Source: an uncultured Muribaculaceae bacterium (lineage in GTDB: Bacteria; Bacillota_I; Bacilli_A; RF39; UBA660). Taken from it: DNA of 31,645 nt. Below are positions 28,800 to 30,682 of this stretch, in pieces. Where the stretch lies: contig CAYMVR010000001.1 of the NCBI GenBank assembly GCA_964393945.1, forward strand, positions 1 to 31,645. Reading direction: 5' to 3'. The notes beneath the pieces are model-generated. The model saw only the letters and a program-made list of their open reading frames with translations. It ran no database searches and was not told the DNA's origin. Each line of letters starts with the position of its first letter. The first letter of the stretch is position 1. Position numbers and translations under genes: made by a program.

Positions 28800-28872
28800 G
28801 AAAATTCTCACAATACATTCGAGTAAGTGGTATCGAATATTTATTAATGAGAAAATATTACTGGTGAAGATA

Positions 28873-29325
28873 ATGAATTATTCTGAAATACTCAAAAAAA
28901 TGCGTGAAGAAAAAGCACTTTCAAATATAGATATGGGAAAAATACTCGGTATATCCGATAGTATGTATAGTCGTTATGAAAAGCAAAATCAAATAATTCC
29001 TGTTAAGTATTTAGATACACTAAGTAAATTTTTTAAAGTTTCCATAGACTATTTGTTGGGGATTACAAATATAAAAGAGTATAAAAAAAGCGGAACTATT
29101 AATTTAGAAAAATCAGTTGTTAGATTAAAAGAATTTAGAAAAGAAAATAATCTTACTCAAATAGAACTTGCTAAAATATTAAATGTTGCTAATGGAACAA
29201 TTGCTAATTATGAACGGGCTAGAAATGTAATAGCAACTCCCTTCTTATATGAAATCTGTTCTAAATATAGTATTAGTGCTGATTATCTTCTTGGTAAAAT
29301 AGATAGTCCTAAATATCTTAAATAG
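28873..29325 (+). CDS. XRE-family regulator with two tandem HTH domains
   Basis: Two cro/C1-type repeats, each ending in S.DYLLG (LKKMREEKALS... and LKEFRKENNLTQ...); start ATG 28873 (ORF track GTG 28864). Confidence 0.92.
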   Translation: MNYSEILKKMREEKALSNIDMGKILGISDSMYSRYEKQNQIIPVKYLDTLSKFFKVSIDYLLGITNIKEYKKSGTINLEKSVVRLKEFRKENNLTQIELAKILNVANGTIANYERARNVIATPFLYEICSKYSISADYLLGKIDSPKYLK

Positions 29326-29341
29326 GTTTATTAAAAACTTC

Positions 29342-29370
29342 TTTACTTTTAAGTAAATTTAGTTTATTAT
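29342..29370 (+). promoter_or_regulatory. Putative sigmaA promoter of the antisense sRNA
   Basis: TTTACT-N17-TATTAT. Confidence 0.55.
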
Positions 29371-29376
29371 TAAGTT

Positions 29377-29442
29377 GAGCGAGACACTAAATAGTGCTTG
29401 CCAATTTCTTGGTGCACCACTTTTAATGAGTGGTGCTTTTTT
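29377..29442 (+). ncRNA. Putative ~65-nt antisense (type I antitoxin-like) sRNA
   Basis: Lies between the promoter at 29342-29370 and a strong intrinsic terminator; convergent with the peptide mRNA and overlapping its 3' arm. Confidence 0.55.
29414..29442 (+). terminator. Intrinsic terminator (plus strand only)
   Basis: GCACCACT-tttaatg-AGTGGTGC-TTTTTT; no U-tract on the minus side. Confidence 0.8.
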
Positions 29443-29471
29443 AATACCAATAACCCCCTGAATAAGTATTT

Positions 29472-29540
29472 CTACTTAAAGAGAATTAGAAGTACTATTA
29501 TTATTAAAAGTATTAGGATTAGAAAATCTTTCTTACTCAT
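29472..29540 (-). CDS. Putative type I toxin-like hydrophobic peptide, 22 aa MSKKDFLILILLIIIVLLILFK (not in ORF track)
   Basis: RBS AGGTGG 5 nt upstream; single TM helix flanked by Lys; own promoter upstream. Confidence 0.65.
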   Translation of the reverse strand: MSKKDFLILILLIIIVLLILFK

Positions 29541-29596
29541 AATAACCACCTACTTTCATAAGTGGCAAGTACCATTCATTTGTGTCTCGCACTTAC

Positions 29597-29624
29597 AACA
29601 TATCATAAAAAGTTAAAATATCAA
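29597..29624 (-). promoter_or_regulatory. Putative sigmaA promoter of the peptide mRNA
   Basis: TTGATA-N16-TATGTT with TG extended -10; predicted start near 29590 at GCGAGACAC. Confidence 0.5.
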
Positions 29625-29757
29625 AAAACAGATTTTATTAAATCTGCGGAAAATATCCGAACATTCGATAGAAAATGTTCGATTTTTTGTTCTAAAAACA
29701 TAAAATCTGTTAAAAATTCCTGCTAAAAGTGCAAAATCTGTATTTTTTGATATTTTA
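29614..29757. repeat. Nested inverted-repeat/palindrome array
   Basis: Outer arms TAAAATATCAAAAAA(TA)CAGATTTT (29614-29636 and 29733-29757), inner palindromes at 29629-29646, 29647-29659 and 29658-29681, four copies of (A)AAATCTG. Confidence 0.7.
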
Positions 29758-29773
29758 CATAATTTTACATTTA

Positions 29774-30682
29774 TTATTTAGTTTTAGGCTTGCGCATAAG
29801 ATAGAAACTTTCCCCTGCTTTTTTAAAAATCGGTTCAGAAACGGAATATGTATCTTCGGCTATGCCTAATTCTTCTAAAGTAAAAGGAAGTTTTTTTATA
29901 GGGTGACGATTTCGGTTATAAATATAATTGATAAGCACTCCATCAGGATTTAATAGGTCATAAAAGTTTCCAATAAAGGCGTGAAATTCAGAAATACCAG
30001 AATAACGGTTATATGATAGATAGTCAGCAATATTTGATAAAAGAATAATATCATAAGTATTTAATAATTTTTCTGGTAATGTCGTAGCATCAGAAAAGGT
30101 AAATGTTACTTCTACATCATCTAATTTTCTTTGAAGCTTTTGATAGGTTTGTGCATTGCCTAAATAATTATTTCTAAGAAAAGCCTCTGAGCCACCATAA
30201 AAATACAAACTTTCAAAGTTAACTAAAGGATTACCAGAACAAAATTCTAACATACGCCGATAATATTCGTATACCTCTTCTGGTAAATATGGTTTTACTT
30301 CATCAAGAATAATTGAACGTTCAGATGTAGTATAATTAGCAGATGTAAAAGTTTGATTGGCTTTCTCAAAATTACTAGGATCATAGGTTTTAATCATGGC
30401 TTTACGGAGGTGGTAGACAAAATAAGTTAGTCTATTTATATCAAATGTATCTACGGAATGTATTCCACTCTCTATAAGATTGAAGACTTGATCTCCTCCC
30501 GATAAGACTGTTAAAGCTCGATCTTTAGCAAAATTAGTCATTGCTAAATAATCTTTAATACACTCACTGGTAACAAAATAAACACGGGAATACTCACTAA
30601 AGCCTTGGGAAAAAAATGGACCATAAACCAGACTCTTACTAGCACTTAGGGCTTCTTCTAAATTTATAGGCATAACATTCAC
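29774..30682 (-). CDS. DUF3419/BtaA-like SAM-dependent protein
   Basis: ALTVLSGGDQVFNL...DTFDIN and YDIILLSNIADY (class I SAM-binding motifs, DUF3419-like spacing); own promoter TTGACT-N17-TAAAAT at 30704-30732. Confidence 0.72.
   Translation of the reverse strand: MNVMPINLEEALSASKSLVYGPFFSQGFSEYSRVYFVTSECIKDYLAMTNFAKDRALTVLSGGDQVFNLIESGIHSVDTFDINRLTYFVYHLRKAMIKTYDPSNFEKANQTFTSANYTTSERSIILDEVKPYLPEEVYEYYRRMLEFCSGNPLVNFESLYFYGGSEAFLRNNYLGNAQTYQKLQRKLDDVEVTFTFSDATTLPEKLLNTYDIILLSNIADYLSYNRYSGISEFHAFIGNFYDLLNPDGVLINYIYNRNRHPIKKLPFTLEELGIAEDTYSVSEPIFKKAGESFYLMRKPKTK

Follow-up and report, generated by a model that had tools for sequence, protein, structure and literature searches.

A compact type I toxin-antitoxin-like module of uncultured gut Bacilli with a predicted bsrG/SR4-like RNA layout

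Within the window, meaning the whole stretch of 31,645 nucleotides that was analysed, a type I toxin-antitoxin-like module was identified, in which a 22-aa hydrophobic peptide encoded on the minus strand is faced by a convergent, terminated predicted sRNA of about 60 nt on the plus strand. The locus is read here as one copy of a multicopy module of this kind, the RNA layout of which matches that of bsrG/SR4 from Bacillus subtilis and the sRNA of which would act by duplex decay together with a tightening of the Shine-Dalgarno (SD) hairpin, a reading to which we assign a probability of about 0.55. The parts of the module, their conservation and their pairing potential rest on sequence and comparison, whereas transcription of the module, the position of the mRNA 3' end, the toxicity of the peptide, cleavage by RNase III and any translational effect are inferred. 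The family is new and its peptide matches no Pfam or NCBIfam family; its RNA design is the one already established for bsrG/SR4, and no new regulatory principle is involved.

In total, 58 distinct units were collected, comprising 52 full units and 6 without the consensus 3' arm, whereby the pattern scan for units is biased towards this consensus arm. The genome to which the window belongs, which is incomplete (1.09 Mb, 63% complete), holds four full copies and one partial copy, mostly located at contig ends. In the respective genus of uncultured gut Bacilli, matches were obtained in 18/44 genomes with a maximum of 16 matches per genome, and up to about a dozen copies reside in a single genome of 1.1-1.5 Mb. 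The pattern scan of species-representative genomes returned almost only MAGs from rabbit and mouse gut that carry the label uncultured Bacilli or Tenericutes, and the DNA runs containing the window are rat and rabbit gut metagenomes. Some units are arranged in head-to-tail arrays (L069:60-1100 on the minus strand, also L039:1703-1838, L034:1427-1560 and L071:4073-4211), where an sRNA-only unit comes after each full toxin/sRNA unit and retains the last ORF codons together with terminator hairpin, 3' arm and sRNA promoter. Such units amount to extra predicted antitoxin genes lacking a toxin.

Layout of the locus and its predicted RNAs

The module comprises the following features:

29342..29370, plus strand: promoter of the sRNA, with -35 box TTTACT (29342-29347), a 17-nt spacer and -10 box TATTAT (29365-29370), from the promoter scan
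29379..29442, plus strand: predicted antitoxin sRNA of about 64 nt, with a 5' hairpin GCGAG-A-CAC/GUG-CUUGC (29379-29401), a linker and a terminator hairpin
29379..29403, minus strand: toxin mRNA 3' arm, provided that transcription extends this far; TGGCAAGCAC...GTGTCTCGC, complement of the sRNA 5' hairpin, pairing with the 5' arm
29414..29442, plus strand: predicted intrinsic terminator of the sRNA, a 9-bp stem (29414-29436) followed by T6
29449..29467, minus strand: 3'-UTR element ACTTATTCAGGGGGTTATT, with G5 at 29458-29454 and predicted pairing with the last ORF codons
29472..29540, minus strand: toxin ORF of 22 aa plus stop, encoding MSKKDFLILILLIIIVLLILFK, with the stop codon at 29474-29472
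29545..29566, minus strand: SD-sequestering hairpin, anti-SD GCCACTTA (29566-29559) with TAGGTGGT (29552-29545), predicted by MFE folding, covariation and RNAalifold
29551-29546, minus strand: SD AGGTGG, inside the SD hairpin and 5 nt ahead of the ATG at 29540
29563..29590, minus strand: 5' arm of the toxin mRNA, contributing GCGAGACAC (29590-29582) to helix X and GTACTTGCCA (29572-29563) to helix Y
G29590, minus strand: predicted start of the toxin mRNA, from the promoter scan, with TTGATA-16-TGnTATGTT upstream
29597..29624, minus strand: near-consensus promoter of the toxin mRNA, with -35 box TTGATA (29624-29619), a 16-nt spacer and a TG-extended -10 box TATGTT (29602-29597), from the promoter scan
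29623..29646, minus strand: AT-rich hairpin CAGATTT-AATA-AAATCTG followed by T6, located just ahead of the toxin promoter with its T-run overlapping the -35 box, and kept in most family members according to the alignment

Both promoters are conserved. Homologues carry TTGACA and TGnTATAAT-like boxes at equal spacing ahead of the toxin gene, and the boxes of the sRNA promoter (TTTACA/TTTACT and TATAAT-like) are kept in all homologues of the alignment. The first-pass annotation of this DNA had proposed that both transcripts begin with GCGAGACAC, and this agrees with the promoter scan, which places both predicted starts at the G of this sequence, downstream of TTTACT-17-TATTAT (before 29379) and TTGATA-16-TGnTATGTT (before 29590) respectively. 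The AT-rich hairpin at 29623..29646 is, judging from its sequence and position, probably an insulating terminator which shields the toxin gene from upstream read-through. A further terminator-like hairpin, bidirectional with T-runs on both strands (29657-29682), is located between the toxin module and a DUF3419/methyltransferase-like gene (29774-30682, minus strand).

The 22-aa peptide possesses a charged head followed by a single predicted membrane helix, and its frame, start and stop are retained in nearly all of the 52 homologues, the common pattern being M-x-K-K-D-F/L, a hydrophobic run and F-K/R. Searches with three family peptides gave no NCBIfam match and no Pfam match below E = 0.18, and a literature search for the peptide motif was likewise without match. 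Four copies were identified as variant or decayed, the arms being retained in all of them: L078:6941-7210 has an upstream ATG that may give an N-terminal extension, the matching frame in L064:1640-1910 stops two codons past the ATG, L054:6896-7111 carries an additional base at the start codon and L055:6383-6597 is without a start codon at the aligned position. A small hairpin surrounds the stop codon (29474-29492, minus strand; AAGUA-GAAA-UACUU) and reads AGAUA/UAUCU in L003 and L062, which are apparent compensatory changes. Another ORF of 26 aa (29450-29370, minus strand), which starts with TTG 3 nt past the GGGGG run, was treated as spurious, as the SD-like run and the start are missing in most subfamilies; it crosses the sRNA region, and a similar open frame is found in copy C7.

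Folding of the predicted sRNA yielded an MFE of -24.8 kcal/mol with two hairpins. The stem of its 5' hairpin is near-invariant across the 58 copies and the loop varies, and covariation was found in 5/7 stem pairs of the terminator. Since the minus strand reads ACCAAG past the stem, this terminator is one-directional; in most copies the minus strand continues past the shared stem with ACCAAG or AAACC, and the T-run occurs on the plus strand only. The Rfam search left the sRNA without match, returning sub-threshold chance matches only (Spot42, GcvB), which were driven by the terminator, and the search of public sequencing runs for the locus found matching DNA runs and no RNA run. By sequence, the predicted sRNA (29379-29442, plus strand) is perfectly complementary to the mRNA 3' arm (29403-29379, minus strand); its overlap with the toxin mRNA is confined to the 3' UTR and lies over 30 nt past the stop codon.

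Regarding the end of the toxin mRNA, no minus-strand terminator was found between the toxin stop codon and the 3' arm, and the scan of 52 units for a canonical mRNA terminator within 260 nt downstream of the 3' arm revealed nothing consistent. An AT-rich hairpin with U5 near 29335 of the window copy was considered as mRNA terminator and set aside, being weak and not conserved. The product of the adjoining gene (28864-29325, plus strand) is a protein of 153 aa that carries two HTH_3 (Xre-type) domains. This gene ends 17 nt before the sRNA -35 box, hence an unterminated toxin transcript would enter it in antisense orientation.

Closure of the mRNA ends and the SD hairpin

The positions given by the first-pass annotation for both arm pairs, the SD hairpin and the 3'-UTR element were all correct when checked against the sequence. 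The arms of helix X are GCGAGACAC (29379-29387, plus strand) and its exact reverse complement GTGTCTCGC (29582-29590), and those of helix Y are GTGCTTGCCA (29394-29403) and 29563-29572 (GTACTTGCCA), the reverse complement of which is identical at 9/10 positions. A repeat search recovered both arm pairs (I5, 12 nt, 92%; I1, 17 nt, 82%). While a perfect inverted repeat of at least 9 nt with at least 5 G/C arose in 11/5000 shuffles of the 401-nt region, the conservation of the arms is, on sequence grounds, the stronger argument as compared to this shuffle statistic, both arms having been found in 52 distinct homologous units and in 6 more. As a caveat to the comparison, the 3' arm, which doubles as the sRNA 5' hairpin, is near-invariant.

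That the mRNA ends can pair, as had been claimed, is borne out by modelling. The window copy folds with -77.4 kcal/mol when a 21-pair long-range helix is formed, versus -59.6 kcal/mol with the local 5' hairpin forced, and closure of the mRNA ends was calculated to be worth -13.4 kcal/mol on average over 52 copies, assuming that the 3' arm is transcribed. The barrier from the co-transcriptional local hairpins to the closed state was estimated by findpath to be about 4 kcal/mol. When the long-range model was laid on the alignment of 52 sequences, 92.3% of the cells were paired (helix X, 96%), and compensated pairs were identified at columns 6/316 (G:C to A:U) and columns 11/313 (A:U to G:C), amounting to 7 cells in total. 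None of 500 shuffles matched the paired fraction, the covariation score or the doubly changed cells of this model.

The compensatory changes trace back to about 3-4 independent lineages or events, which limits the covariation argument. Among the few lineages whose 3' arm has changed, L025 and L032 carry a 5' arm altered to match, with a predicted fit of about -16 to -17 kcal/mol to its own 3' arm versus -7 to -10 kcal/mol with the consensus partner. In the L024 group, which has a G at position 6 of the 5' arm, this arm pairs equally well with its own or the consensus 3' arm (-13.7 kcal/mol), and the consensus 5' arm is a poor fit to the 3' arm of the L024 group (-7.2 kcal/mol). A third compensated position (G:C to A:U) is found in L109. 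Taking folding and covariation together, the long-range 5'-3' helix is likely to form, on condition that the mRNA 3' end includes the 3' arm.

It might be argued instead that the two RNAs merely share a 5' stem-loop, meaning that the same stabilising hairpin GCGAG..CUUGC heads each of them independently, e.g., as protection against a 5' exonuclease, that the mRNA ends at the shared hairpin without comprising the 3' arm and that the overlap amounts to about 30 nt as in par. We consider this unlikely. Each arm folds on its own, the sRNA hairpin combines a near-invariant stem with a variable loop, and the local hairpin tolerates nearly all changes of the 5' arm too; as each arm is a quasi-palindromic hairpin, most substitutions (C to U, A to G) fit the long-range and the local-hairpin model alike. 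However, the two-local-hairpin model reaches only 86% of paired cells, a value that 474/500 shuffles reach as well, whereas the long-range model beats its shuffles. Furthermore, the local 5' hairpin is weak (-6.3 kcal/mol), the minus strand lacks a U-run past the shared hairpin in most copies, and position 6, which would be bulged in the local hairpin, shows A to G as its only change, in step with its long-range partner.

The SD hairpin is, as judged by sequence comparison, the best-supported structure of the locus: both partners have changed in three of its six pairs, and 0/500 shuffles reach the observed values. RNAalifold, run unguided, placed helix X, the SD hairpin and the terminator-complement hairpin in one consensus, which argues that the SD hairpin and the long-range helix coexist and are not mutually exclusive; helix Y was not predicted in this consensus, the shared CC being given to the SD hairpin. 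Likewise, the MFE structure of the window copy holds both the 8-bp SD hairpin and the long-range helix. Bases are shared between the two elements, as claimed initially, but only GCC.

Closure has a consistent but small predicted effect on the accessibility of the SD. With the 5'-3' helix formed the SD is about 80-99% paired, and in the window copy the SD bases were calculated to be 1-10% unpaired alike in the full-length, the truncated and the sRNA-blocked state, whereby the MFE SD hairpin is not lengthened when the sRNA target is blocked. Across 52 copies, the SD is unpaired with a median probability of 0.22 in the closed form versus 0.04 with the sRNA target blocked or removed. Folding with and without the 3' arm or the sRNA, which had been proposed as a check, yields a shift of the family medians and the same low range in all states for the window copy itself. 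The median energy required to open the stretch from SD to AUG is 10.0 kcal/mol in the closed and 12.1 kcal/mol in the sRNA-blocked form (median rise 2.1 kcal/mol), with the change exceeding +1 kcal/mol in 39/52 copies and falling below -1 kcal/mol in three. The closed form would be easier to open at the SD because the opened anti-SD can extend helix Y. Along the predicted co-transcriptional path the SD hairpin is formed by nt 46 and never opens thereafter. On the basis of these models the closed mRNA is to be described as shut and the sRNA-bound mRNA as shut harder, not as ON versus OFF; the predicted translational effect of the sRNA is small, and the argument for it is thermodynamic folding throughout.

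As the predicted sRNA is by geometry a same-sense copy of the 5' arm, and in this sense indeed the mimic of the mRNA 5' arm that it was taken for, it must compete with the 5' arm for the 3' arm. It was furthermore considered whether the sRNA serves as a trans-acting anti-SD mimic; this was rejected, as its sequence past CUUGCC varies freely and the mRNA always has a CCAC-type anti-SD.

Based on this competition the first-pass annotation had postulated a full switch, in which 5'-3' pairing opens the SD hairpin (ON) and the sRNA mimic, by taking the 3' arm at a distance of more than 100 nt, shuts translation down (OFF), this being the main control. The direction of the effect stood, as seen from the medians for unpaired probability and opening energy (about +2 kcal/mol) over 52 copies, and helix Y and the SD hairpin have GCC in common, an overlap that extends to 5 nt in the L071-type subfamily. 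The ON/OFF character did not stand, since the SD is shut in both states: opening from SD to AUG still requires about 10 kcal/mol in the closed form, the window copy retains its 8-bp SD hairpin next to the long-range helix with the SD 1-10% unpaired, and RNAalifold assigns the shared CC to the SD hairpin without helix Y. As main control such a switch is improbable, even if one subgroup (see below) is predicted to expose an SD-like AGGGGGU of its 5' arm only in the closed form.

This last observation relates to the element AGGGGGU(C/U)UUGG, which is conserved but relocated: the subfamily of the window has it in the 3' UTR, whereas most others (L036, L030, L024 and others; alignment A2, columns 16-31) have it within the 5' arm, between helices X and Y. 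It had been described as a partial copy of the SD region, a description which does not fit: in the window copy ACTTATTCAGGGGGTTATT has an unpaired probability of 0.0 in both states, the last ORF codons being its predicted partner, and in other subfamilies the element belongs to the 5' arm. In one subgroup only, the G-run of the 5' arm was predicted to be exposed in the closed mRNA (76-92% unpaired) and less so after release of this arm (27-62%); it is also able to pair with the X strand (GAGAC with GUCUU). The G-run could be a standby or stabilising site for the ribosome, or merely an alternative partner of the 5' end. From this it may be speculated that closure is the sole translatable state, with helix Y pulling GCC off the anti-SD hairpin, the AGGGGGU in the internal loop between helices X and Y exposed in many paralogues as a possible ribosome standby site, and the sRNA switching the message OFF by strand displacement at the 3' arm. 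We regard this as a long shot; if true, it would document a bacterial toxin mRNA that is activated by 5'-3' closure, the reverse of hok, and a mobile standby element that occupies the 5' arm or the 3' UTR depending on the subfamily.

Proposed working of the module

The reading preferred here, i.e., a bsrG/SR4-like module controlled by decay and SD tightening, assumes that initially the toxin promoter fires and yields a minus-strand mRNA of about 215 nt or longer, coding for the 22-aa membrane peptide. The nascent mRNA would form the weak 5' hairpin and the anti-SD hairpin, so that the ribosome binding site would be shut at once and, as far as predicted, in every state. Next, the first 9 nt of the mRNA (helix X), in most copies together with the helix Y stretch, would pair with the 3' region and thereby close the molecule, which would hide both mRNA termini and probably stabilise the message. 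The convergent sRNA of about 60 nt, which would be fully complementary to the final approximately 60 nt of the mRNA, may enter, by analogy to SR4, via a single-stranded A-run and the loop of the terminator-complement hairpin. It would then zip up about 60 bp and displace the mRNA 5' arm, which refolds locally; as the anti-SD GCC is thereby freed from being shared with helix Y, the SD hairpin would become about 2 kcal/mol harder to open. Finally, RNase III probably cuts the long sRNA-mRNA duplex. RNase III (PF14622) was found above cut-off in the genome of the window and in 20/20 relatives, which renders duplex-dependent decay feasible. Most likely, the sRNA acts mainly via decay, with a secondary tightening of an already closed SD.

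It is very unlikely that the locus is not a toxin-antitoxin module at all, but a gene whose small membrane peptide is harmless and which is faced by a convergent antisense RNA, or a set of mobile-element repeats, as might be suspected from the multiple copies of the unit, their frequent location at contig ends and their tandem arrays. A reading as MITE or as terminal inverted repeat was rejected: conservation passes the limits of the repeat in both directions and takes in the two promoters, and as the conserved unit exceeds the inverted repeat in this way, the repeat is not a transposon terminus. In addition, the searched collections of viral contigs and phage genomes contained no family match, and the layout with SD sequestration, insulating hairpin, antisense RNA and sRNA-only extras is that of a type I module. 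[quoted passage not shown]

Comparison with known systems

The module adds an undescribed and very compact type I toxin-antitoxin-like family, made up of a 22-aa peptide and an sRNA of about 60 nt, the hosts of which are uncultured small-genome gut Bacilli of rodents and rabbits, and such modules are missed by gene callers and annotation. The 58 natural variants provide a good comparative system for the respective shares of decay and refolding in control.

In hok/sok of plasmid R1 and aapA1/IsoA1 of Helicobacter pylori, closure sequesters the SD, 3' trimming activates the message and the antisense RNA binds the 5' region (PMC5416894). The module described here shares with them a type I toxin mRNA that is closed 5' to 3' and metastable local hairpins during transcription. 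It differs in that closure excludes the SD, truncation in silico tightens the SD and the antisense RNA takes the 3' arm; the opposite polarity to hok/aapA fold-back that had been pointed out at first pass is hence a correct contrast (PMC5416894). With txpA/RatA from B. subtilis, where RNase III represses the toxin by cutting the duplex and the antitoxin does not match the ribosome binding site (PMC4147584), the module has in common this route of repression, here predicted, and an antitoxin not complementary to the ribosome binding site. In contrast, the toxin of that system comprises 59 aa, and neither a translational effect nor displacement of a 5' arm is described there (PMC4147584).

The par system of pAD1 (fst RNA I/RNA II) possesses direct repeats, and RNA II blocks the ribosome site directly (PMC4147584). 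Likenesses are the compact convergent pair in a low-GC Gram-positive, the repeats at both RNA 5' ends, the hairpin common to the 3' ends and the SD within a 5' stem-loop. As the par repeats are direct, its two 5' ends are complementary, whereas the repeat identified here is inverted, both 5' ends thus being of the same sense and unable to pair in the fashion of par. The bidirectional shared terminator of par is moreover absent here, with the T-run on the plus strand alone.

The closest counterpart is bsrG/SR4 from the B. subtilis prophage SPbeta (Jahn and Brantl 2013), for which structure probing revealed that nt 1-35 at the mRNA 5' end pair with nt 232-262 at the 3' end (helix P1) and that the SD is located in a 4-bp helix directly past the 5' arm (PMC3834814). 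SR4 binds to the 3' part of bsrG, upon which nt 1-33 become single-stranded, the SD helix extends from 4 to 8 bp and translation is lowered; control is dual, acting on decay and translation, with RNase III cleavage promoting decay (PMC3834814), and this mechanism has been repeated in reviews (PMC8167048). The notion that the mechanism suggested for the present locus would be unusual hence does not hold, as bsrG/SR4 works in this way and was published in 2013 (PMC3834814). Both systems, the present one as predicted from sequence and folding, have a convergent sRNA over the 3' end of the toxin mRNA, a closing 5'-3' helix and an SD helix just past the 5' arm, and in both the antitoxin is complementary to the 3' strand of the closing helix. 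Differences concern the toxin (22 aa here versus 38 aa, with no shared family detected), the length of the sRNA (about 60 nt versus about 180 nt), the mimic segment, which here is the extreme 5' end of both RNAs with the first 9 nt being identical, and the closing helix, which here is without a terminator stem-loop after it. Moreover, the predicted SD change is a modest energy shift here and not a longer helix. The bsrG/SR4 design, i.e., a closing helix, an sRNA taking its 3' strand and an SD hairpin beside the freed 5' strand, thus appears to have arisen or to have been kept outside Bacillus, which lends support to the proposal by Jahn and Brantl that regulation at a distance might be widespread.
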